In this document: positions 3,221-59,922 of the stretch, piece after piece
How positions within the stretch are numbered: the stretch's first letter is position 1
How the letters are laid out: each line of letters opens with the position of its first letter
Assembly: GCA_030425805.1 (NCBI GenBank)
Contig: JAUHZC010000002.1
Location: forward strand, 20,448 to 84,447
DNA: 64,000 nucleotides
Reading direction: 5' to 3'
DNA from: Alphaproteobacteria bacterium
Lineage (GTDB): Bacteria > Pseudomonadota > Alphaproteobacteria > JAUHZC01
Position numbers and translations under genes: made by a program
The notes under the pieces: model-generated
Told to the model about the DNA's origin: nothing
Database searches by the model: none
What the model saw: the letters and a program-made list of their open reading frames with translations, nothing else

Positions 3221-5452
3221 ATGAAAAATGTAAGTTTATGTGTCCTCGCCCTTTTATTAATTTTTTTAGGAGAGTATCGGGCCTTTGGTGCTGAAGCTAA
3301 AGAGGGAGAGGGAAGAGAGCCTGCTGATGCGGCCTTATCAGACTCTAGCGGTGGTGAAGATGGTTGGGAATTAGAAGATTTGTTCGGAGCCGTAGGAGAA
3401 GATGCTGCTGCAGAAGCAGCCGCAGCTGCCCCTCCAAAAACAAGCCACCCCCCTTTACATAGTTCACCACCAGCAGCATGCGGCAGGAGAATTGCTGGCT
3501 CATCACTCCTTGCTGTTCCAGCTGCAAGAGCAAGTAGTGATCCAGCTTTTCCTGGAGATAGAGTCCCACCGGTTGGCAAAACTCAGAGAGGATTACTCCC
3601 AGGAAACGCAAATATAAGGGGACTTCCTCAAAAACCCGGGGGTAGAGTTATGAGATTTGACCGTGCAGTAGCAATTACCAGACTGGGACGTACAGCAGCT
3701 GCAGCGAGAGAATTAATGGCAGCTGCTGCTGGACCCAGTGGCCTCCTCTTGCGTGGTCATTCTGAGGGGATAGCTGCTGCCCCCACATCCAGAAACGCTT
3801 CTCAAGCAGCGGGTCTTGCGGCACCAGACTCGGGGGGGGGAGCTGCTCCAGAATTAGCCCGAGGGTTGAGCGTTGATACACAAGTGACAAACTCTAGTGG
3901 AGCAACGCCCTGTGAGAGATTTTATAGAATTCAGGCGCGCTGTCACGCTCATCTTAATTTAGATTATAGGAGAGTTGCCCGTGCTGTTAGAGAAGCGTGT
4001 GAACCTGGTTCCCTTTGTTTTACAGAGCTTAAGGCAGAGATCGGTACTGCTGCTGATGCAGCAGCGGCATCTTTCTCAGCCGTTACAAGCCTCTCTGGCT
4101 CTGGTGTTGTCCTCTATAAGGTCTTAAGAGAATTCTGTCGTTATACGAAAATTACAGGTGCAACAGGTCCAAGTATTCTCAGGGATGTTCACGCACATTT
4201 TCATGAGGATGTTATCGCTCTCTGCTCAGCTTCAGCCTCCCCTCCTGAAGATCCTGCAGTCCATCTCCGCCAACGTGTTTTGGGGATTTACCTTTTACGC
4301 AAAGCAGGGGTTTCTCTAGAATCTCTCTCCTTAAAGGTTATACAAGCCTTTTCTCTAGATGCTTCAGATCCTGCCCTAGAAGGCTTGGAGCCTTTTATGG
4401 CGACAGATGATGATGGTTCAAGGAGCATAATCTTACCCCATAATGGCTATATTTTAGATGGGCAATTCTTTTGGTATGACTGCACAAGTGCCATTTATGC
4501 GGCTTACCGAAAATTTTTAGGAGAGCTTCCAGCTGGCGTGCGTTTTGATACAGGCCTCCTAAAAGCTTTTGTACACTCAACACAGGGTGGAGCTGCTCCC
4601 CCAGTTGAACTTCCATTTGATGTTGTCGCGGATCACAGAGACATAAAAGCCCGGGATATTCTCTTCTGGCGGTATGGCGATGAGGAAGCAGGAGAAGCTG
4701 CGGCTGCAACAACCCTTGAAGAAGAAGCAGCACGACGTGGAGGGCACGGTATGCTTGTTGTAGATGTGGAAGTAAACCTTGCAGGCGAGACAATTGTCTC
4801 CTTTGAAGAAGCTAAAAACTTCACTGGGGGGTTCCGTGTCCGCAGAGTTCGCCTCCAAGATATTCTTGAAGGCAATATTGCCGGAGCAGGAGGCCTCGAG
4901 TATCATATACTAAGGCCTCAGGCTGGTCTTATCCCTGCAGGCGCAGACCTCACAGCGCTTCCTGCAGCAAGCTCAAGCTCACTGCTTGCAGCAGCTGTTG
5001 CTATGGTAAGTGTTCCAGGGGACCCTGATGCTGCCAACTTAGGACTGGAAGCAGCTTTTGGCCTTTTGGGAGATAGACGAGCTACACCAGAAGAGGGCCC
5101 AGGAGTAGCCGGACCAGGACTAGGACTTGGGTTAGATTTAGCAGCAGATGAGGCTCTCGCAGCAGTGGAAGGTCTCTCACCGCCTGCCGCTACAGCTATG
5201 GCAGCGCCTCTGGGAGGCTTGAGAAGGTTTTCTTCTGGCGATACAGACGATACTGAAGATATGGGAAGAGAAGAACCACATCACCTGCAAGAGGAGTCTA
5301 CCCGCTCTTTAGCCACTGCTGCTGAAGGAGGAGAAGGAACTGACAGAACGGGAGATGGTGATGGCGAAGAATTTGATCTTTCCGTCGAAGATGTCCCAGA
5401 AGCTGCTGCAGTGGCGGCAGCTGCTGTAGCTGCAAATGCTGATGATGAATAA
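3221..5452 (+). CDS. Large secreted Ala/Gly/Ser-rich hypothetical protein (signal peptide, central globular region, acidic C-terminus)
   Basis: 743-aa ORF. Leader MKNVSLCVLALLLIFLGEYRAFGA. Long low-complexity Ala-rich tracts. C-terminus EGGEGTDRTGDGDGEEFDLSVEDVPEAAAVAAAAVAANADDE. Contains a G9 homopolymer at 3832-3840. Confidence 0.6.
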   Translation: MKNVSLCVLALLLIFLGEYRAFGAEAKEGEGREPADAALSDSSGGEDGWELEDLFGAVGEDAAAEAAAAAPPKTSHPPLHSSPPAACGRRIAGSSLLAVPAARASSDPAFPGDRVPPVGKTQRGLLPGNANIRGLPQKPGGRVMRFDRAVAITRLGRTAAAARELMAAAAGPSGLLLRGHSEGIAAAPTSRNASQAAGLAAPDSGGGAAPELARGLSVDTQVTNSSGATPCERFYRIQARCHAHLNLDYRRVARAVREACEPGSLCFTELKAEIGTAADAAAASFSAVTSLSGSGVVLYKVLREFCRYTKITGATGPSILRDVHAHFHEDVIALCSASASPPEDPAVHLRQRVLGIYLLRKAGVSLESLSLKVIQAFSLDASDPALEGLEPFMATDDDGSRSIILPHNGYILDGQFFWYDCTSAIYAAYRKFLGELPAGVRFDTGLLKAFVHSTQGGAAPPVELPFDVVADHRDIKARDILFWRYGDEEAGEAAAATTLEEEAARRGGHGMLVVDVEVNLAGETIVSFEEAKNFTGGFRVRRVRLQDILEGNIAGAGGLEYHILRPQAGLIPAGADLTALPAASSSSLLAAAVAMVSVPGDPDAANLGLEAAFGLLGDRRATPEEGPGVAGPGLGLGLDLAADEALAAVEGLSPPAATAMAAPLGGLRRFSSGDTDDTEDMGREEPHHLQEESTRSLATAAEGGEGTDRTGDGDGEEFDLSVEDVPEAAAVAAAAVAANADDE

Positions 5453-10123: not shown

Positions 10124-10161
10124 TATGGATTGCAGCAATGCTTACGCTCCTCGCGATGAGG
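10124..10161. repeat. Single copy of repeat module F (ATGGATTGCAGCAATGCT..GCTCCTCGC...)
   Basis: atggattgcagcaatgcttacgctcctcgcgatgagg also occurs, with a few changes, at 17957-17990, 23527-23560, 23736-23765 and 57341-57380. Confidence 0.6.
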
Positions 10162-10260: not shown

Positions 10261-11676
10261 ATGTTATTTCTTAAATATATACCTGTATTTATTTTTTGCC
10301 TTCTTTCATCCACAGGATACTGTGCTGATGCAGCAGCTGCAGGAGGAGTCGATACTTTTGCAGATAAATATGCCCAAGCTGTGTCTCTACGAAACGAGTG
10401 CTTAACCGGTGGAAAAGTCGTAAACATAGGGAAGCTCATCAACGCTCAAACTTTTTTCATGCATTGTTTGTGTGGGAAAGGAGATATTCCCGGAAAAGCT
10501 ATGCACAACCTTGGCAGACTTTTCTACGCAATAGGGGATTTGCCCCTCGCCCAATTTTGGTTTCAAGCATCTTGGGACCGTCTTGGTCTGGGCGCAACAA
10601 AGAAGAATTTAGAGACTGTATGTGCAGAAATGGAAGGAAGTGAACCATCAGCAGAAACCCCACCTTCAGTTTCCCTTGCTACATCTTTTGAGGATCTTCT
10701 AACAAAGGCAGTGTTTGATGCTAACAGTCAAAAATATTTACAAGTAGCACTTATGCGCAAAAGCCTTAGTGACGATTTAAAGACAATAGCGGGAATTTGC
10801 TATAGAGATCCCCTGATTGCCTCAAAGGCTCTCCTTGCAGCTGCAGAACATCCCTTAAAGGGGGCTGTTGGCCAAATCTTTGTTTCTGATCTTGAGCTTG
10901 AAGGAGGGCAGAAGATAAATGCCACCTGTGTGCATCTTGGAGGAGGGCATATTCTTGCTAATGCACACTTTTTAACAGCTGTTCTTGATATTGCTGGTGG
11001 AGCCCTGCCTGCTAAAAAAATCTTAAGCAAGACAACTATCAGTTTAGAGGGGCGACTCTATTCCGTGCACTCTGGGTTGTTAAAAAAAGGCCATGATACA
11101 GAGCTCAACCCTCCTCTTACATCGGGTGCATTTGATTTTCGTAATGATCTCTTGCTCCTTCATTGTCCAGAAGCAGCTGGTGCAGCGACAATCCCTGTTG
11201 CAAAGGCTGCTTCTGCAGAAGAATTTCCTATGGCGTGTACTGTCCTGAGTTATGCCACGCCGAAGGTTGGTGATTTTTCTACATCATTTGCAGCATTACC
11301 TGTTCTTGCAATGTCTGAAGCTAGGCTTCATCGTGAAGAAGGAATGTATCCTCGTTTGTTCCCGGGTATGGAAGGGTGCTTAACTGTTGATGTTGCAACA
11401 ACAAACCCTGCAGAATTAGCGTTTGCTGATGCTCATGTTCCGGACCTTCACTTACCAGCTGCTTATGGCTCATCTACTTCAGGTTCTCCTTTTATCAATT
11501 CAAAAGGAGAAATTGTCGGAATTCTTGCTAATTCTCATGTATCTGTTACTACAGGAGAGCCCCCTGTATATATAAATACAAATTTTATTGTTGACCTTAC
11601 AAGGCCAGAAATCAGGTCATTTCTAGCTGCTAACTTGGGGAGTGCACCTCCGGCGGATACCATTTTTGCAGAATAA
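10261..11676 (+). CDS. Secreted protein with C-terminal trypsin-like (S1/Trypsin_2-type) serine-protease-like domain
   Basis: Leader MLFLKYIPVFIFCLLSSTGYCADA. Candidate catalytic triad in canonical order: His in GGGHILANAHFLTA, Asp in NDLLLLHC, and Ser in GSSTSGSPFINSKGEIVGILANS (a GDSGSP-like box). Confidence 0.5.
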   Translation: MLFLKYIPVFIFCLLSSTGYCADAAAAGGVDTFADKYAQAVSLRNECLTGGKVVNIGKLINAQTFFMHCLCGKGDIPGKAMHNLGRLFYAIGDLPLAQFWFQASWDRLGLGATKKNLETVCAEMEGSEPSAETPPSVSLATSFEDLLTKAVFDANSQKYLQVALMRKSLSDDLKTIAGICYRDPLIASKALLAAAEHPLKGAVGQIFVSDLELEGGQKINATCVHLGGGHILANAHFLTAVLDIAGGALPAKKILSKTTISLEGRLYSVHSGLLKKGHDTELNPPLTSGAFDFRNDLLLLHCPEAAGAATIPVAKAASAEEFPMACTVLSYATPKVGDFSTSFAALPVLAMSEARLHREEGMYPRLFPGMEGCLTVDVATTNPAELAFADAHVPDLHLPAAYGSSTSGSPFINSKGEIVGILANSHVSVTTGEPPVYINTNFIVDLTRPEIRSFLAANLGSAPPADTIFAE

Positions 11677-11704: not shown

Positions 11705-11843
11705 CAGTCATCGCGAGCCCTGACAGGGCGCGGCGATCCATAAGATGCTTGGATTCCGGGTCGGAGTCTGGAATGACGATGCAGCCTTATGAAGGTCACT
11801 CCGGACCCTCACACTAAAGTCACCCCGGACTTGATCCGGGGTC
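11705..11843. repeat. Composite palindromic repeat element (modules A-B-C), downstream of clpP
   Basis: Reads gtcatcgcgagccctgacagggcgcggcgatccataagatgcttggattccgggtcggagtctggaatgac...gtcaccccggacttgatccggggtc. About 95% identical over roughly 100 nt to 57241-57340. Contains hairpins ATCGC..GCGAT, ATTCCGGG/CCCGGAAT-like and ACCCCGGA/TCCGGGGT. Confidence 0.8.
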
Positions 11844-11854
11844 TATAATTAAAG

Positions 11855-16510: not shown

Positions 16511-17710
16511 ATGAAAAAATTTGTATCTATATGTTTCCTTCTTTTGTTATCCTTTGACGCATGGGGAGCTGCTACGAAATTCTCAAAAGCAGAAGAGGAA
16601 AGGTCTGTCAGAAAGCTTTTAGAAAGGATTGGACGTAAGTCACCAACCAGAGAGCTTGTTGATTTTTTCATTTCAAAACTTCCTGAATTAAGGGGGTTAC
16701 CCAGCAAAAATGCTCGAACAGCAAGAGCAACCAAGCTGTTAAAAGATTACACCGCTGAGAAGAAAGGCGAAGCAAAAGCTCGTGCCGCAGAGGCTGCCAG
16801 GTTGCGAGCTGAGAGAGAGGCGGCGGCTGCTGCTGTAGACAGAGGAGGTGCTGATGGGCCAGTGGATGCAGGGGGTGATTTAGCATCTCTTGCAAGTTCT
16901 GAGGAGGTCGACGACCCTGATGAACGCGCAAGAAGAGAAGCTCTTGCTCTAGAAGAAGCTATTGCGCTGCGAGAACTTGCACGTGCAGAGAGAGCTCAGC
17001 GGGTAGAGGCTGAAGAAAGCGCACGCCGTCAAATTGGAAATATTACAGCAGCACAGAGAATAGGGAAAGCCTGGAGAGAGAGGACTCAGCGTGGAGTAAT
17101 GCGGGACCTTGGGGGTGCTGCAAGAGAACGCGTTAGAGAAGCTAGAGCCCAACGTGAGACTGCAGTAGCAGAACGAGCGGAAGCTGTTGCTGCAAGAGAG
17201 GAAGCAGAAGCTCAACGTGAGTTAGCACAAACCGCACAGCAAGAAGCAGAAGCCCAACGTGCGGCTGCAGAAGCAGAACGAGCAGAAGCTGTTGCTGCAA
17301 GAGAGGAAGCAGAAGCTCAACGTGGGTTAGCACTAGCAGCGCAAGCAACTGCTGAGGGTGAACGTGACGCCCTAATTCGTGCTGTTTATGGGTTAGGTGC
17401 AACAGATGGCATTACAGCAGGACAGAGGGACAGAGCACTTGAAAGAGCGAGAATAAGCCGGCAGCTTCGAGAGGAATTGATTCGGCGGGATCAGGATCCA
17501 GTTAACTGTAAGTTTAGAAGCTATGCAAGAGGTGCAAATACTGACACAGAGCTTCAAGTTTTACAAAATGCTTTGGATGCTCTCCTTGTAGCAGCTCCTG
17601 AGCCAAGAACATGTTTTCCTCTCGGGCGTGGACCGTGGGCTATACAAGGGCAAATCCACAGGGATTTCCTTGCACCACCAGCAGCGGCAGGGGCGGCAGC
17701 TGCTGAATAG
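16511..17710 (+). CDS. Secreted Ala/Glu/Arg-rich coiled-coil repeat protein
   Basis: Start is 2 nt after the barrel gene stop. Leader MKKFVSICFLLLLSFDAWGA. A 105-nt (35-aa) tandem duplication AEAVAAREEAEAQRELAQ.../AEAVAAREEAEAQRGLAL... lies at about 17163-17340. Confidence 0.6.
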   Translation: MKKFVSICFLLLLSFDAWGAATKFSKAEEERSVRKLLERIGRKSPTRELVDFFISKLPELRGLPSKNARTARATKLLKDYTAEKKGEAKARAAEAARLRAEREAAAAAVDRGGADGPVDAGGDLASLASSEEVDDPDERARREALALEEAIALRELARAERAQRVEAEESARRQIGNITAAQRIGKAWRERTQRGVMRDLGGAARERVREARAQRETAVAERAEAVAAREEAEAQRELAQTAQQEAEAQRAAAEAERAEAVAAREEAEAQRGLALAAQATAEGERDALIRAVYGLGATDGITAGQRDRALERARISRQLREELIRRDQDPVNCKFRSYARGANTDTELQVLQNALDALLVAAPEPRTCFPLGRGPWAIQGQIHRDFLAPPAAAGAAAAE

Positions 17711-17740
17711 AGGGTTATAGTCTTCAGCTTTACAAATAAA

Positions 17741-17769
17741 AGCCTCAGAACATCCTGGGGCTTTTTTTA
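17741..17769 (+). terminator. Rho-independent terminator
   Basis: agcctcag-aacatc-ctggggct stem (8 bp with one G-U pair) followed by T7. Lies 30 nt after the 16511-17710 stop. Confidence 0.6.
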
Positions 17770-17814
17770 TTTAAGAAGAAACAAGAACCGATGCCCTTGT
17801 TCAGTGCTTCTTCT

Positions 17815-18185
17815 GGACCCCGGATCAAGTCCGGGGTTTCGAGGGGAGGTCCTGGGGTTTCGAGGAGAGTCCTTGGGTTTTGATGAGGAGTGATAAGATT
17901 TAGGCGAAGGGTGCTGAATTTTACTGCGAGGCCTGAAGATCTGTGGCAGTCTGTACGTGGATTGCCACGTCGCTGCGCTCCTCGCAATGACCTTGAAAGT
18001 TTGTGCTTCTTGCAATAACCTCATTACCATTAGGAAACCTGCTCCCTTCTATCGCGAGCCCTCACCCTTCTCTATTGTCATCGCGAGCTCGAAGGGCGTG
18101 GCAATCCATATATCGAAATTCCAGCGAAGGCTGGAATCCAGGATTATCTTCTCCCCTGCAAAAGCAGGGGGCTGGTTTTTATTTT
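17815..18185. repeat. Mosaic palindromic repeat cluster (modules C, G-rich GGGGTTTCGAGG repeats, F, A with 1.5 copies, D, E)
   Basis: Carries ggaccccggatcaagtccggggt; ggattgccacgtcgctgcgctcctcgcaatgacc; ctatcgcgagccctcacccttctctattgtcatcgcgagctcgaagggcgtggcaatcc; attccagcgaaggctggaat (GNRA-type loop); and cccctgcaaaagcagggg. The same modules recur at the other repeat loci. Confidence 0.8.
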
Positions 18186-18258
18186 ACTATGAGGTTAAAT
18201 TTTCAGCACTCGCGATGGCCAAAACCTGTTTCTCGACTTTCCAGAAGGAGATTTCCGG

Positions 18259-19497
18259 CTAAATCACACGCGCCACACCAGGGATGCGACGTACAAGGAT
18301 AGAAAGCACAAGGGTTGCAGGCAAAGCTATAGCAAAGCAAACACCCCCTTTGATGATTGAGGGAATATCACTCCCCTTAAAATAACTTTGTACAAAAATA
18401 ACCACGGGCAAGTGAAAGAGGAAAAGCGCCATGGTGTTTTCACTTAGCCGCTGCCAAAGGAGACTCAGGGTTTGAAAGCGCCCTTTAAAGAGCAACATCA
18501 ACCCCATAATCCAGCTCAGCATCACGGTCACAAAGAGAAGACACCGAGGGAAAACCCCGATAAAGTGATCCCAGAGATAAGGCCAAATCCTCCAAAAGGA
18601 CCCTCCTCCTTGACGATAGAAAACAAAATCTTGATTCCGTACAATATCTTTATCCCCTCCCAATGTGTACGCCAAATACAGTATGGCAGAGAGCATCATC
18701 GTGAGATAAATTTTCCCTTTATGCCGGGACAGAGCCTCGATCACAGCACTATCTCTCAAAAGGCCACTTTGTGCAATCCCAGCCCCAAGGAAGAATAAAG
18801 CAACATTTGTTGTTAGCTGAGAAGGCACGAAACTCAGGACAATAAGGGTTCCGGTCCATGCCCGAAAACCTGTCAAGAAATCACCAACCCAAACACCAAA
18901 AGCCAAAATCAGAATCAAGAGCCCAACTTGCTTCGGCTTAAGATCCTGTATCAGAGCTTTGGTATATGATGCAAGACGCTCAAGAGCTTTGGGAAATACG
19001 GCCCATATCAATACATAGAGCAAAGAAAGAATCATCAAATAAGGTAAAAACCAATATGTCCCCGCAGAGGAGAGGCGCTCCCAATACACTGAGGAAAAGT
19101 GATAATCAAGGTAGCCCATTGCCTCGCCATAAAAGCCAGGATAAAGAGACAAGCGTTCTACATACTTTGGATACATTAAGGGAGGAAGTAAAAGAGGCGT
19201 GAGAACCCCAAGAGGCACCAAAAGCCGTAGCGCCCGACTGATGATGAATTTCTTCTCCCCATATTTAGAAAGAGAGTGATATGAGAAAATCCCAGCTACA
19301 AAGAGAGCTCCCGGCACCATATACACATCTGTTAAGAGAATCAAAATATCAAAGAAAACATCTTGATTAAAAGCAGACTCCTCTACAAACCAACTTCTAG
19401 AGAGAACTGTGCCGTAAGGAAAAAAACAGTGATGAAAAATGATGCTGAGAATAAAGAATGCCCGCAAAGCATCAAGATAAGAAATCCGCTGTGCCAC
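18259..19497 (-). CDS. Acyltransferase family 3 (OpgC/OafA-like) integral membrane protein
   Basis: N-terminus ISYLDALRAFFILSIIFHHCF is typical of Acyl_transf_3, followed by about 10 predicted TM segments. Confidence 0.6.
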   Translation of the reverse strand: MAQRISYLDALRAFFILSIIFHHCFFPYGTVLSRSWFVEESAFNQDVFFDILILLTDVYMVPGALFVAGIFSYHSLSKYGEKKFIISRALRLLVPLGVLTPLLLPPLMYPKYVERLSLYPGFYGEAMGYLDYHFSSVYWERLSSAGTYWFLPYLMILSLLYVLIWAVFPKALERLASYTKALIQDLKPKQVGLLILILAFGVWVGDFLTGFRAWTGTLIVLSFVPSQLTTNVALFFLGAGIAQSGLLRDSAVIEALSRHKGKIYLTMMLSAILYLAYTLGGDKDIVRNQDFVFYRQGGGSFWRIWPYLWDHFIGVFPRCLLFVTVMLSWIMGLMLLFKGRFQTLSLLWQRLSENTMALFLFHLPVVIFVQSYFKGSDIPSIIKGGVCFAIALPATLVLSILVRRIPGVARVI

Positions 19498-23524: not shown

Positions 23525-23765
23525 TCATGGATTGCCCAGGCGCTGAGTTCCTCGCAATAACTTCCTTACTGTCATCGCGAGCCCTCACCCTTCTCTATTG
23601 TCATCGCGAGCCCTGAAAAGGCGTGGCGATCCATAAGAGATTTGGATTCCGGGTCGGGGCCCGGAATGATGAAGTAGCGGCCCCCGGACTCTCATTTAAA
23701 GTCATCCCAGACTTGATCCGGGGTCTATGGACTGCAGCAATGCTGCGCTCCTCACAAAAATCAAG
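23525..23765. repeat. Mosaic palindromic repeat cluster (modules F, A with 1.5 copies, B, C, F)
   Basis: Carries ggattgcccaggcgctgagttcctcgcaat; tgtcatcgcgagccctcacccttctctattgtcatcgcgagccctgaaaaggcgtggcgatccataaga; ggattccgggtcggggcccggaatgatg; agacttgatccggggtc; and ctgcagcaatgctgcgctcctcac. Confidence 0.8.
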
Positions 23766-24465
23766 CTCTTTCGTTCTCTCTTGGGGAGGTCAATCCAGCC
23801 CGGTCAAGGATGCTAGCTACTTCTTGTTTTTCACCATTGTCCAAGACAGCATAGAAAGTCGTAAGGTCTAGTGCCACCCTAAAAGATCCCAATACAGCGG
23901 TCTGAACAGCGGCAGAATCCCTATAAGCTGATGGGTACATTGTGTTATACAGCGCAGGATGCATAACATAAAAAGAAGGATTTCCTTCACCGGAAATAGC
24001 ATACAAGGTGCCCCACTTACCAGCAATGTATGCGGACCCACCAAAAGCTATGCCCCTCATGAGAAGAGGAGCAAGGCCTCTAGACTTCGAAAGAAAACGA
24101 GTTTGTGAAAGCAAAGAAAGAGAGAGAACTGAGAGCGCTGCTCCTGCTCTGCTTGCAAAGGCAGCATCCTCCTTCGCCCTCTCAAAAACTAAGGCTGTCC
24201 GTTCTTCGAAGTACTTTTGCCACGCCTGTCCCTTTAATGAATCAACTTCTGATACAGCTAATATAGCTCCAAATTTTCTCCTAGCAACCGCTGCTTTAAG
24301 GGCTTCGGCAACACGCCCCACAGAAGCAGCAGGAGATAAATTTACACCTCCGATTCTCACAACTTCTTCCTTTCCATCTGCCCCATGAACAGAGTCAGAG
24401 GAAAAACTGATTCCTAAGTAGATAAATAAGAGGGTTTTTGTGAGCAAATTGGACATGGGAAGCAC
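23761..24465 (-). CDS. Secreted hypothetical protein
   Basis: Leader MSNLLTKTLLFIYLGISFSSDSVHGA. 234 aa. No recognisable domain. Confidence 0.45.
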   Translation of the reverse strand: MLPMSNLLTKTLLFIYLGISFSSDSVHGADGKEEVVRIGGVNLSPAASVGRVAEALKAAVARRKFGAILAVSEVDSLKGQAWQKYFEERTALVFERAKEDAAFASRAGAALSVLSLSLLSQTRFLSKSRGLAPLLMRGIAFGGSAYIAGKWGTLYAISGEGNPSFYVMHPALYNTMYPSAYRDSAAVQTAVLGSFRVALDLTTFYAVLDNGEKQEVASILDRAGLTSPRENERA

Positions 24466-24583
24466 CTTTTAAATTTGCCCGACAGTATAACACATTCAAC
24501 GCAATTTCAAGTTTTGCTAGAGGTTTGATGATGGTCCCCAAATCAAGTCCGGAGCGACTTTCTTTATGGGAAAAGCCCCTCAC

Positions 24584-44873: not shown

Positions 44874-46616
44874 TTAGCCTTCTTCCTCTGTAGGAACCTC
44901 TATTCCAAGCTTTGTCAGCTTAGCATCAGCCTGCTTTTCTGCTTCAGCTTTAAGGTCCACCACCATCTGACCTGTGGTGTAGATTTCAAGCATATAGTAA
45001 TCTGTGAAAGCTTTTTTAAGAAATCCGCTAAGCTTTTCCGCTGTTTTGGTCTTTTTTGCTTCCTCAGCAAGAGCTATCAGTTGATTCTCCTGTGCCTTCA
45101 AAGCTCTTCCCACATCTTGCACCAGAAGTTGCTGTTTACGCCTGTTAAAAGCATTGATCGCTGAAGAATTATCTTCAACCTTGATGTCTTTTGCCATATT
45201 TTCTCGACCCTTAAAGCCTGTGCCAAAGACAAGGCCAATGTCTCCAGGGTAATGTCCAAAGACTTTGTCAAACTCACTGGGGACGCGTCGGTAAGTTTTG
45301 CGAATGTAATACTGAAGATGGCCTTCCCCATCTGGCATTCCCTGAGCCTTCAACCACTGCGGTCCATTCGGATCATCAATCACAGCCTTCGCAAGACTCA
45401 CCATGGCAGGCACATTGAATTGAAAGAAGGCTGTTGCAAAATCTCCAAGTCCTGAACGCTCTTCCTTCGGGTGCCATTTTTCCACATCTGAAGGCAATCG
45501 AGGCTCCTGGAGAATCATCTGCCCCTGAAAGCCGTCAGGCGCTATAACATGCAATGTGGGAACCAGTGTAAACTTCGCTGAAGACCCTGGTAAGGGAGGC
45601 TGCATTTCAAGGTTCCAAATACCAAGGCCTGGTAAAGGCCCTTTATAGAGATCGGACAAGTCCTTTGGATCAGGTGTAGATAACAAACCATAAAGAATGT
45701 CGCCCTCAACGCCACCAAGTCCTTTTTCTTTCTTGTCTGATCCAAATTTTCCAGCCTCTTTAAAGCTCACTTGAAAGCCCGAAACTGAACCCTGAGCAGC
45801 CTTAGGCAATTGACGATTTGATATGGCTTTTTGCAGCAAACGATTGAGAATTGGCTGAGCATTGGTCCCCAGCTTTGCCGCCTCTTCTTCTGCCTTTTTC
45901 TTTAGCGACTCTTTGAGCAAAGGCTCCATATAAAGGCGTTTCACAATAGGATCAGCTGTTGAACGAGGATTTACCCCAATGGTTTTCGTGAAGTTTCCAT
46001 CCAGATCTGTATAGTCTTCCTCTCCCGCAGCTGGCGGATTAAAGGACACAAGCTTACTTCCACTTCCTTCTGGCTCATAAGGCTCAAGAGCAAAGGGTTT
46101 CACAACAGGAAGCGTTAAGGTCTTCATTGTCCACCCCGCTTTACGTTCAAAACTTGGGAAGAGAAAGGTAGCTTGGCCTAGAAATTCTTTTTTGGTTTTA
46201 CACTTCTTTCCAGTTTCAAGATAAACCCCAACAACCTCATTTTTATAGACCATGGACTTGAATTTGAGGTTTTCAATCAGAAACTTTTCTTGTTCCTTTT
46301 TAGGCTTATCTTTTTCCTTATAACGCTCCCGACAGGCCCAAACTTCATGATCAGCATCAGTGTAGGGTGTCATGGCCTGACGATTTCGGTACCCTGAGAA
46401 TCTTACTAAAAGGGCATTCAGACCATTTTCTGCTGTCTTTCCTTCATAAACCTGAGCTGAAATCAAGAACTGCCCATGGCGATTTTTGTACTTAAACTGT
46501 ACTTCTCGCTTTGCCGAGAGTTGGTCAAATGGCCGATCTTGCTTCTCTCCATAAAGAGGCATTGCAACAAGCCATATACCGAGAAAAATTTGGACAAGAC
46601 GCTCCCAAGAGATCAT
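44874..46616 (-). CDS. Large secreted hypothetical protein
   Basis: 580 aa. Hydrophobic N-terminus IFLGIWLVAMPLYG. Lys/Glu-rich, coiled-coil C-terminus. No recognisable domain. Confidence 0.5.
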   Translation of the reverse strand: MISWERLVQIFLGIWLVAMPLYGEKQDRPFDQLSAKREVQFKYKNRHGQFLISAQVYEGKTAENGLNALLVRFSGYRNRQAMTPYTDADHEVWACRERYKEKDKPKKEQEKFLIENLKFKSMVYKNEVVGVYLETGKKCKTKKEFLGQATFLFPSFERKAGWTMKTLTLPVVKPFALEPYEPEGSGSKLVSFNPPAAGEEDYTDLDGNFTKTIGVNPRSTADPIVKRLYMEPLLKESLKKKAEEEAAKLGTNAQPILNRLLQKAISNRQLPKAAQGSVSGFQVSFKEAGKFGSDKKEKGLGGVEGDILYGLLSTPDPKDLSDLYKGPLPGLGIWNLEMQPPLPGSSAKFTLVPTLHVIAPDGFQGQMILQEPRLPSDVEKWHPKEERSGLGDFATAFFQFNVPAMVSLAKAVIDDPNGPQWLKAQGMPDGEGHLQYYIRKTYRRVPSEFDKVFGHYPGDIGLVFGTGFKGRENMAKDIKVEDNSSAINAFNRRKQQLLVQDVGRALKAQENQLIALAEEAKKTKTAEKLSGFLKKAFTDYYMLEIYTTGQMVVDLKAEAEKQADAKLTKLGIEVPTEEEG

Positions 46617-57199: not shown

Positions 57200-57700
57200 A
57201 CAATTGTGAGCCCTGAAAGGGCGTGGTGATCCATAAGATACTTGGATTCCGGGTCGGGGCCCGGAATGACGACGCAGTCTTATGAAGGTCACTCTGGACC
57301 CTCACACTAAAGTCACCCCGGACTTGATCCGGGGTCCATGGATTGCAGCAATGCTGGGCTCCTCGCAATTGTGACTTTCTGAATGGGAAGAGAGATCGAA
57401 ATTCCAGCGAAGGCTGGAATCCAGGACTCTTTTCTCCTCTGCGAAGGCAGGGACTTTTTTTCCTGGACCCCGGATCAAGTCCTGGGGTTTCGAGGGGAGG
57501 TCCTGGGGGTTTTGGGGAGAATGCTGGGGTTTTGTCTTTCTTCGTCACATATTTCAGACTTACAATCGCGAAGTCCGGAGGCCTGTGGCGATCCATAAGA
57601 TGCTTGGATTTCGGGTCAAGCCCGGAATCACCTCTTTAGTGCCCGGAATGGCCACTTTTGCTATATGGAGAATCGAAATTTCGGAATCAAATGAAGATCC
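57200..57700. repeat. Largest mosaic palindromic repeat cluster (modules A, B, C, F, D, E-variant, inverted C with G-rich repeats, A', B')
   Basis: Region 57241-57340 is about 95% identical to 11745-11845. Contains attccagcgaaggctggaat, gaccccggatcaagtcctggggtttcgagggg, and a second ...cgcgaag..ggcgatccataagatgcttggatttcgggtcaagcccggaat copy. Confidence 0.85.
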
Positions 57701-57818
57701 CTGGGGAATGACACTTTGGTTTGATCCTCTGGAAGAGATGATGTAAAGAATATCTGAAGAAGGAGTGACTTTTCCTCCCCCTTCAGATCGCGTATAGTAG
57801 CTTTTTTTTAGTTAAGGA

Positions 57819-58914: not shown

Positions 58915-58988
58915 TCTCTATCGTCATCGCGAGCCCTCTCCATTCTCTATCGTCATCGTGAGCCCGAAGGGCGTGGCGATCCACATTT
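58915..58988. repeat. Repeat module A (1.5 copies) immediately 3' of tRNA-Val
   Basis: tctatcgtcatcgcgagccctctccattctctatcgtcatcgtgagcccgaagggcgtggcgatccaca. Confidence 0.8.
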
Positions 58989-59205: not shown

Positions 59206-59922
59206 TTATGGTTCATTCCCACCTTCAGAACCTGGATCTTCATAGCCACCCCCCAAGGCGACATCTATGACCTCAAGAAGACTTGGTTTAGATTGGGGAT
59301 AGAGGGTAGCCTTATGCACGCCACTCCTGATGGCCCCTGCCATGATGATAATATTTGGAAGTTCTGAGCAGGTGATTCTATACCCACCCTCAACTAGAAA
59401 TACTTCACAGCTTATATCTCTCCTCGTGTCATCTAAAACAGTAAGATAAGCAGTAGGAGGATGAACAGCTCCCGGAATTGTCTCGCTTTCTAAGATGCTT
59501 AAGGTAAGACCAAAAACATTATAAGGATCTAACTTTTCTGTACACCAAGCTTTGCACCACCTCTCCTTTTGGGTGTAGGATCCATATAAAATTTCAAACA
59601 TAGGGATGTGGTCACGCCGCCAGGCTTCTCTAAAACGGGACTCACTAAAGGATACTCTCCCAGCGGCAGAACGTGAAAAACCAATTGCTTCAAAATGAGA
59701 CCATTGTTGCATCACAGTCTCTTCAATAGCGCTTGGGAAATGTTTTGCACCGCAAGCACTTAGGGTCCGCCTCCACTTTGCACAAGCTGCGTTGTATGGC
59801 CCACAAAACTCTTGGCAGGAAACGACCAATCCCTGACATCTTTCCTCAAGGGGGCCAGGCTCTGCAGCTCCCCAGGCTGAAGAGTGATAGCAAAAGAAAA
59901 GAATCAAAAAGATCTGTAACAT
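59206..59922 (-). CDS. Secreted Cys-rich hypothetical protein
   Basis: Leader MLQIFLILFFCYHSSAWGA. Mature part has 12 or more Cys (CQGLVVSCQEFCGPYNAACAKW...). Confidence 0.45.
   Translation of the reverse strand: MLQIFLILFFCYHSSAWGAAEPGPLEERCQGLVVSCQEFCGPYNAACAKWRRTLSACGAKHFPSAIEETVMQQWSHFEAIGFSRSAAGRVSFSESRFREAWRRDHIPMFEILYGSYTQKERWCKAWCTEKLDPYNVFGLTLSILESETIPGAVHPPTAYLTVLDDTRRDISCEVFLVEGGYRITCSELPNIIIMAGAIRSGVHKATLYPQSKPSLLEVIDVALGGGYEDPGSEGGNEP

Follow-up and report, generated by a model that had tools for sequence, protein, structure and literature searches.

What are the short palindromic modules that crowd one spacer, at 57.2-57.7 kb, of an alphaproteobacterial sequence and recur in changing order and orientation in spacers nearby? 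The window that we analyzed is 64,000 nt of contig JAUHZC010000002.1 (positions 20,448-84,447; all coordinates below are window positions). From its letters, the initial annotation had described a mosaic of hairpins, modules A to F, resembling Rickettsia palindromic elements (RPEs) or repetitive extragenic palindromes (REPs), and this general nature was guessed correctly. We consider it highly probable that the loci are clusters of CGTC-tagged REPs arranged like bacterial interspersed mosaic elements (BIMEs) and composed of 25-40 nt hairpin units; as to how the units multiply, our confidence is lower. The superfamily is already in print: Di Nocera, De Gregorio & Rocco described families CGTC-1 to CGTC-4 in 2013 (BMC Genomics 14:522, PMC3733652). 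New here are a further host lineage, heterotypic clusters copied as blocks, a CGAA variant of the tag, and a quantified, cross-phylum description of the interrupted-stem hairpin to which modules A and F belong.

The named modules occur where they had been described and far above chance, by both pattern counts and an unsupervised repeat search. In the window, the A scaffold pattern has four exact matches against 0.00 expected, and the A head has six matches at ≤2 mismatches against 0.18; C, B, D and F match five, three, two and two times, each against 0.00-0.01 expected. The unsupervised search independently returned them as repeat families (D3, D5, D7-D10, D12, D14, D16 and D17) and as inverted pairs (I3, I6, I11, I15 and I19), while self-BLAST of the six described loci against the window added a seventh, a degenerate inverted C at 24521-24561 on the - strand, whose three A.C mismatches on the + strand are G.U on the - strand. 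A generic scan for a tag, an 8-bp stem and CCA gave 20 matches compared with about 7 in shuffles. Every perfect 8/8 hairpin with a CCA tail falls inside the loci, with tags cgtc, agtc, catc or cgaa, and the imperfect remainder, including the intragenic matches, is at background level. As had been claimed, the loci, now seven, all lie between genes, for the most part shortly after the 3′ end of a gene or tRNA. Their density of one locus per 9 kb had been called very high; against the general background of REP counts in E. coli and Pseudomonas, it would not be exceptional for a REP-rich genome.

The cluster at 57198-57715 displays the architecture most fully. It reads A(+) B(-) C(+) F(-), D(+), E, C(-), G-rich 21-nt repeats, A(+) B(-) and decayed fragments, and is a BIME-like array of at least nine REPs alternating in orientation plus one terminator-like hairpin. 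The array begins 8 nt after the YceG stop codon with a composite of four REPs in alternating orientation (57198-57373, +), comprising A4 (+, helix region 57203-57230), B3 (-, 57243-57271), C4 (+, 57311-57338) and F5 (-, 57336-57373). Next come D2 at 57395-57425 (+; ATTCCAGC-GAAG-GCTGGAAT, tag CGAA, tail CCA) and the terminator-like hairpin E2 with its T-run at 57437-57461 (+; 57437-57452 in the terminator scan). C5, an inverted C with a 1-nt bulge and a CGAA tag (57461-57491, -), forms an inverted pair with C4, 125 nt apart. It is followed by G-rich 21-nt tandem repeats (57484-57545, +) of the same unit as those at 17833-17881, and by a second, more diverged pair with facing CCA ends (57560-57632, +), made of A5 (+, helix region 57565-57592) and B4 (-, 57605-57632). 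Direct reading of 57636-57715 reveals decayed REP fragments (CCCGGAATGG, ATCGAAATTTCGGAAT and CCCTGGGGAATGAC; strand not assigned). The CCA ends face each other in the A(+)/B(-) and C(+)/F(-) pairs, and the C4 and F5 tails overlap in CCATGG.

B, C and D follow a common plan: a short unpaired tag, an 8-bp stem in which the first A pairs with the final T, a loop of 4-6 nt, and CCA. B3 on the - strand reads cgtc-ATTCCGGG-ccccga-CCCGGAAT-cca, C4 reads agtc-ACCCCGGA-cttga-TCCGGGGT-cca, and D reads cgaa-ATTCCAGC-gaag-GCTGGAAT-cca, so that the loops measure 6, 5 and 4 nt, respectively; in C the second pair is C-G. The D loop had been described as GNRA-type, which GAAG is not, since its fourth base is G. 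Tags vary around one theme, being cgtc in B3, agtc in C4, catc in B2, CCTC in F1, and AGTC, TGTC or CGTC in the A copies. A CGAA tag is carried by D and by inverted C, at 18114-18117, 57397-57400, 17838-17841 (-) and 57489-57492 (-); forward copies of C carry AGTC and inverted copies CGAA. Module E had been counted with the same hairpins and has to be set apart, being a separate terminator-like hairpin followed by a T-run. In a terminator scan, T-runs were present only after E1 and E2 and absent after A, B, C, D and F.

This plan is close to that of the CGTC REPs. As described in 2013, they carry an unpaired terminal CGTC, or TGTC/CCTC, a stem of 8-9 bp almost always starting A-T, T-A, a loop of 4-5 nt and a 3-nt tail fitting CCA; they are mostly inverted dimers, mainly alphaproteobacterial with outliers in other phyla, and come without a dedicated transposase (PMC3733652). 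The window hairpins share the tag, the A-first stem (with the A-T, T-A start in D and in A/F), the CCA tail, the inverted pairing, the 3′ intergenic position and the alphaproteobacterial host. B and D belong to the ATTCC..GGAAT type, for which the supplement lists VIPAKAGI/SFPRKRES, and lie close to CGTC-1, RPE-6 and dRS3; in the same paper, Neisseria dRS3 and R. conorii RPE-6 are identified with CGTC-1, and RPE-4 with CGTC-4 (PMC3733652). The S. alaskensis CGTC-1 peptide WTPDQVRGD, also from the supplement, back-translates to TGGACCCCGGATCAAGTCCGGGGTGAC, the exact reverse complement of C. At the level of sequence, module C is base for base a sphingomonad CGTC REP. It is also 100% identical over 26-29 nt in plasmids of Sphingobium, Sphingopyxis and Novosphingobium, where a single record can hold it up to 18 times, and one Novosphingobium spacer flanked by convergent genes has it as an inverted doublet. 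Under the refuting condition set in the initial annotation itself, the suggestion of a new lineage-specific family falls, because B, C and D match a published REP superfamily (PMC3733652).

The likeness to RPEs rests on the equation made in PMC3733652 and on a shared motif. ATGAC, the reverse complement of GTCAT, is a hallmark of RPE-4, -6 and -7 (Rickettsia japonica paper), and the ATGAC/GTCAT motif occurs 7.8 times per kb in the window loci versus 1.8 per kb elsewhere in the window. In-frame insertion into protein genes is what RPEs are known for; the window holds no convincing intragenic copy.

Modules A and F depart from the simple plan. The initial annotation had described F as being in part the reverse complement of A's head. 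The relation stands but was drawn too narrowly: F is a complete inverted hairpin on the same scaffold with a different inner segment, so that A and F represent a single longer hairpin with two alternative inner sequences, F always being inverted relative to A. Its stem starts A-T, T-A and is interrupted, with 5 bp, a GA/GTG internal loop and then an inner helix of 4-5 bp. Since stem and loop sizes fall outside the published ranges, the features that support placing A/F among the CGTC REPs are its tag, its A-T/T-A start and its tail. For a broader view we collected A-hairpin pattern matches in more than 110 stretches from other taxa, a few of which are chance coding matches. Of 145 unique A/F sequences from the window and these cross-taxon loci, 124 are tagged NGTC (CGTC in 91 cases) and 125 close with the CCA tail; at the third outer-helix pair, 89 have C-G, 50 have T-A and 6 have a mismatch.

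RNAalifold of 47 diverse A/F copies recovers the 5-bp outer helix ATYGC/GCRAT, a 2x3 internal loop with GA opposite GTG (sometimes GAA), and an inner helix of 4-5 bp that switches among CCCC/GGGG, GCGC/GCGC, TGCC/GGCA, CGT/ACG and others. In this two-helix fold, 93.7% of cells are paired versus 79% in shuffled alignments and 24-56% when the partners are slid; cells with double changes number 62 versus 22 in shuffles. The covariation score is 0.356 versus 0.136 and was reached by 0/500 shuffles. The collection patterns fix most of the outer helix, so that free evidence comes only from its third pair and from the inner helix as a whole. These data bear on two alternatives. One makes the repeats double-stranded DNA sites for nucleoid or topology proteins such as gyrase or IHF, which would organize supercoiling at 3′ ends by analogy with E. 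coli BIMEs, a precedent cited in PMC3733652; the BIME-like alternation at 3′ ends, especially in convergent spacers, would suit it. The compensatory changes, however, preserve pairing within a strand rather than a fixed duplex sequence, and because they do so a folded single strand is favored and duplex sites appear very improbable.

The second alternative is a small structured or cis-regulatory RNA family with a specific ligand or protein partner. Conservation of the unpaired A/F nucleotides together with covariation of the inner helix across phyla would be expected of one. Rfam, however, matched none of the hairpins, so that the suggested search for a known RNA family came back empty: across the whole window only three tRNAs reach the gathering score, and at 57150-57800, with E up to 10, the best sub-threshold match has 18 bits and E = 0.46, which is noise. 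Moreover, the two largest clusters yielded no promoter-like sites, and copies are found in either orientation relative to genes, as tandem arrays in Rhodocyclus, and as decaying fragments. We regard this possibility as extremely improbable, and return to CGTC-tagged REPs as the better description.

The hairpins extend far beyond the window. Hosts of the A hairpin include Alpha-, Beta- and Gammaproteobacteria, Fibrobacter metagenome-assembled genomes, Patescibacteria of the candidate phyla radiation (CPR; Parcubacteria, Magasanikbacteria), Cytophagales, Opitutia and others, with Rhodocyclus purpureus and several Inquilinus genomes among the named carriers. Within this pattern-collected sample, the unpaired A/F nucleotides stay the same in CPR/Patescibacteria, in Fibrobacter and in the Alpha-, Beta- and Gammaproteobacteria. 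The window copy F2 matches plasmids of Halomonas, Methylosinus and Methylocystis. The same cross-taxon loci also carry an ATTGC..GCAAT variant and B-like hairpins, e.g., GTCATTCCCGCGAAGGCGGGAATCC. The A pattern had 0 matches in 2.9 million IMG/VR viral contigs, and carriage by phages is accordingly not supported. In the betaproteobacterium R. purpureus DSM 168, A-type and ATTGC-type hairpins form long tandem arrays that repeat about every 145-245 nt and reach at least 11 copies per 8 kb, in contrast to the statement in PMC3733652 that CGTC clusters are rare.

Within the window, the remaining loci combine the same units. Locus 1 is a single F-type REP, F1 (10124-10161, -), with tag CCTC, outer helix ATCGC/GCAAT containing one G.T, and tail CCA, 19 nt after the YchF stop codon. 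At locus 2, 29 nt separate the stop of open reading frame (ORF) 10261-11676 from A1 (11705-11742, +; tag AGTC, tail CCA, helix region 11710-11737). A1 is followed by B1, a CGTC-1-like REP of the ATTCC..GGAAT type (11750-11779, -; its - strand shows the CGTC tag, its + strand two G.T pairs), and C1 (ACCCCGGA-CTTGA-TCCGGGGT, 11818-11845, +; tag AGTC), which ends 10 nt from the stop of the convergent ClpP gene.

Locus 3 opens with C2, an inverted C with the CGAA tag variant (17811-17841, -), and G-rich 21-nt tandem repeats (17833-17881, +) that re-copy its tag-proximal half. The repeat unit, GGGGTTTCGAGGGGAGGTCCT, stands beside inverted C here and at 57484-57545; on the - strand it corresponds to the repeated tag and first stem bases of C. 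On the + strand these repeats contain four to five G4 tracts with short spacers, giving them G-quadruplex potential. Further along are F2, the canonical cross-phylum hairpin GTCATTGCGAG-GAGCGCAGCGAC-GTGGCAATCCA (17955-17993, -), a truncated A head with a 15-nt spacer and the full A2 hairpin (18051-18110, +; A2 helix region 18080-18105), D1 (ATTCCAGC-GAAG-GCTGGAAT, 18112-18142, +; tag CGAA, tail CCA), and the terminator-like hairpin E1 with its T-run (18152-18181, +; 18152-18171 in the terminator scan).

Locus 4, between the - strand genes TauE and ORF 23761-24465, contains F3 (F-type, 23525-23562, -), an A head (23571-23584) with the full A3 hairpin (together 23571-23637, +; GTC at 23600, helix region 23603-23630), the perfect 8-bp REP B2 (23643-23671, -; tag CATC), C3 with two substitutions (23700-23727, +) and the degenerate F4 (23725-23762, -), whose tag end abuts or overlaps the stop of ORF 23761-24465. 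Locus 6 is an A head (58923-58936) with the full A6 hairpin (together 58923-58987, +; helix region 58955-58980), 23 nt after tRNA-Val and convergent with tRNA-Ser; locus 7 is the degenerate inverted C given above. At three loci, a truncated A head, ATCGCGAGCCC, and a kept 15-nt spacer, TCNCCNTTCTCTATY, thus stand directly before a full A in a 29-nt phase (18051-18090, 23571-23613 and 58923-58965). This head-spacer-A unit may be a footprint of copy-making, by slippage or abortive copying at the hairpin.

Comparison of the loci shows that entire blocks, namely A-B-C-F, D-E, and inverted C with its G-rich repeats, have been copied between them. Block identity between loci, whose flanks are unrelated, is 79-92%: 87% for the whole A-B-spacer-C unit, 79% for A through F at loci 4 and 5, and 85% for D-E. 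The pair of copies for which about 95% identity had been claimed, 11745-11845 and 57238-57338, agrees at 93/101 positions (92.1%), and the signs of fairly recent duplication are upheld. Some intact REP copies have decayed ones next to them. In a separately made short-read assembly of this organism (Logan ERR3420974), two contigs break off precisely within different C copies (window positions 57325 and 11817), which indicates that C is repeated beyond the window as well. Composite junctions are another matter. In JGI metagenomes one junction pattern gave 0 matches and the other gave 3, two of them chance coding matches and one an unrelated A/F-type hairpin, and a plasmid search with the window repeats found only C and no composite junctions. 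As the junction patterns gave nothing relevant in metagenomes or plasmids, the hairpins are pan-bacterial and only the composites are lineage-specific.

Could the composite itself be the mobile unit? A lineage-specific miniature inverted-repeat transposable element (MITE), an option already named in the initial annotation, would make the ~175-nt A-B-C-F block a deletion derivative of an insertion sequence (IS), moved by a classical transposase through terminal inverted repeats. The 11-nt ends of the block at 57.2 kb, ACAATTGTGAG and CTCGCAATTGT, are indeed complementary and let it fold into a single long hairpin (z = -4.5 as RNA, -4.1 as DNA), its copies at three loci are 79-92% identical, and the absence of its junctions from plasmids and JGI metagenomes makes it lineage-specific, all of which such an element would explain. 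Direct reading of three composite block boundaries, however, revealed no target-site duplications, no IS was found and no transposase turned up among the window ORFs scanned. The supposed terminal repeats are themselves the cross-phylum REP scaffold, the modules also occur singly or in other orders (loci 1, 3, 6 and 7), and the internal spacer differs between loci 4 and 5. Movement as a MITE is therefore distinctly unlikely, and block copying within REP clusters describes the data better. All seven A and all five F copies are reported on the + strand whatever the direction of the flanking genes (F being listed as inverted, -), and the GC skew of the window is negative almost throughout. The uniformity may reflect a replication-strand polarity of insertion or mere block copying; because A and F were copied as blocks, it represents too few independent events to interpret.

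Placement relative to genes brings in the host. The loci occupy 3/9 convergent, 4/35 unidirectional and 0/9 divergent spacers, include the window's three longest spacers, and amount to 1.4 kb in all, or 25% of the intergenic DNA. The first hairpin lies 8-29 nt after a stop codon at loci 1, 2 and 5, and the hairpins are likely co-transcribed with the upstream genes. Such locations, at 3′ ends in unidirectional or convergent spacers, are typical of REPs (PMC3733652). In unidirectional spacers, stem pairs that depart from Watson-Crick tend to read G.T on the sense strand (+ spacers 5:0, - spacers 1:7; Fisher p = 0.005). These features invite the explanation that the hairpins serve the host as RNA, as terminators or 3′ mRNA stabilizers kept by selection rather than by selfish spread. 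Every locus borders the 3′ end of one or more genes or tRNAs, divergent spacers have none, the G.T pairs in the window are biased to the sense strand, the E hairpins are terminator-like, and PMC3733652 argues likewise from location and G.T pairs.

The larger sample does not bear this out. In the cross-taxon A/F outer helix the wobble bias was not reproduced (6 sense versus 10 antisense, with crude gene calling and many "intragenic" calls in arrays), and hairpin orientation relative to genes is 77:76. RNA-level selection is for this reason only suggested. Besides, A, B, C, D and F lack a T-run, locus 3 follows the upstream gene's own terminator (17738-17765), hairpins occur in only 7/44 eligible spacers, and stacks of at least nine hairpins, decayed fragments and cross-phylum identity go unexplained. 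We judge a mainly host-serving role unlikely. Of the functions listed in the initial annotation, that of intrinsic terminator looks apt for E only; the MITE option has neither target-site duplications nor a parent IS behind it, and that of a small structured RNA drew no Rfam match.

How, then, would CGTC-tagged REPs multiply? By analogy with the GTAG REPs and their REP-associated tyrosine transposases (RAYTs), the hairpins would spread as non-autonomous DNA elements, with a trans-acting nuclease or transposase recognizing the single-stranded hairpin through its conserved unpaired nucleotides. New copies would pile up beside or inside earlier ones, where insertion is harmless; once co-transcribed, the RNA hairpins could act as 3′-end barriers, and the E hairpins would supply real terminators. 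Comparison of Inquilinus strains 88-90% identical to one another fits slow, REP-like turnover, with dimers kept at orthologous sites and cluster size varying from 5 to 7. A Pfam scan of nearly all long ORFs in the window found no transposase or HUH domain. At the 110 cross-taxon loci, no plausible gene and no Y1 transposase lies between inverted hairpins, and clustering of their 1362 ORFs gave only housekeeping families and spurious repeat ORFs, with no recurrent neighbor. The absence of a linked transposase agrees with the lack reported for CGTC REPs (PMC3733652) and with literature according to which Alphaproteobacteria carry none or few Y1 transposases. A literature search found no later mechanistic work on CGTC REPs. 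The constancy of the unpaired nucleotides leads us to a conjecture that we offer tentatively and hold to be doubtful, namely that A/F constitutes a fifth, as yet uncatalogued structural class of CGTC REP, read by a single, broadly distributed trans-acting protein, either a nuclease/transposase or an RNA-binding factor, that would be the missing mobilizer.

Several observations weigh against assigning these loci to the CGTC REPs and against the mechanism just outlined. CGTC clusters are called rare in PMC3733652, and here four types form heterotypic clusters copied as blocks. The CGAA tag of D and inverted C is a variant that the paper does not mention, and the 6-nt loop of B exceeds the published 4-5 nt. 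A/F lies outside the 8-9 bp stem and 4-5 nt loop set out in the text of the paper, and none of the intragenic peptides listed there corresponds to the A/F type, although bulged members were possibly missed by the original survey (PMC3733652). We infer mobility solely from how similar the copies are; neither an empty site nor a target duplication nor an enzyme turned up, and at orthologous Inquilinus loci no clean insertion boundary was obtained for an empty site. The strand signals count here as well: the wobble asymmetry in the window rests on about six independent copies, a transcription-coupled C-to-T bias would give the same pattern, and the cross-taxon sample described above did not reproduce it.

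Other repeat systems offer partial parallels. With GTAG REPs, RAYT-linked REP doublets forming hairpins (REPINs) and E. coli BIMEs, the window loci share hairpins whose 5′ tetranucleotide is unpaired and conserved, inverted doublets, and alternating arrays 3′ of genes. These systems offer the best model at hand for the workings of such elements. The GTAG tag, however, is GT[AG]G and that of the window CGTC/NGTC, and neither the window nor the 110 other loci have a flanking RAYT or Y1 gene. MITEs such as Correia/NEMIS and Coxiella QMITE2 likewise are ~140-175 nt composites with complementary ends in multiple diverged copies 3′ of genes, and QMITE2 is known to embed a REP; unlike these, the window composites show no target duplications and no parent IS, and their modules are shuffled independently. 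The closest published parallel to the mosaic architecture is Neisseria dRS3 in its mosaic intergenic regions, although the interleaved partner repeats differ. Filamentous prophages of Neisseria and IS110-type elements use dRS3 as an integration site. No such integration was seen at the window loci.

For this window, the result bears mainly on correct annotation: REP clusters should not be taken for genes, small RNAs or a new element, and they generate spurious ORFs and break short-read assemblies. ORFs of 80-132 aa run through the clusters at 57198-57596 (-), 57343-57639 (+), 17745-18030 (-) and 17957-18302 (+), and are almost certainly spurious translations of repeats, liable to enter annotations as hypothetical proteins. 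More broadly, CGTC REPs are a large REP superfamily still without a known mobilizing enzyme. Fresh composites, 87-92% identical, in a poorly sampled alphaproteobacterium provide starting material for finding one, and the cross-phylum A/F hairpin, with its conserved, recognition-like unpaired bases, provides a second starting point.

The host lineage is indeed poorly sampled among Alphaproteobacteria. Its GyrB is at most 74% identical to any database sequence and 64-66% identical to those of Dongia, Nisaea, Paracaedimonas and Holosporales. Gene content around the loci is of the housekeeping kind (ychF, clpP, clpX, ruvABC, icd, gyrB, a PBP1 gene, pyrG, fabF, acpP and mltG/yceG), amid which many long ORFs have no Pfam or NCBIfam match (3221-5452, 10261-11676, 44874-46616, 51600-53456, 59206-59922 and others). 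Just upstream of locus 3, ORF 16511-17710 (+, 399 aa), without a Pfam match, contains a 105-nt tandem duplication at 17137-17346 that is 86% identical. ORF 47756-49858 (+, 700 aa), with no Pfam or NCBIfam match, is Q/A-rich and carries 105-nt and 153-nt tandem repeats; with a local GC of 52% and an AT skew of 0.31, it is the strongest compositional outlier of the window.

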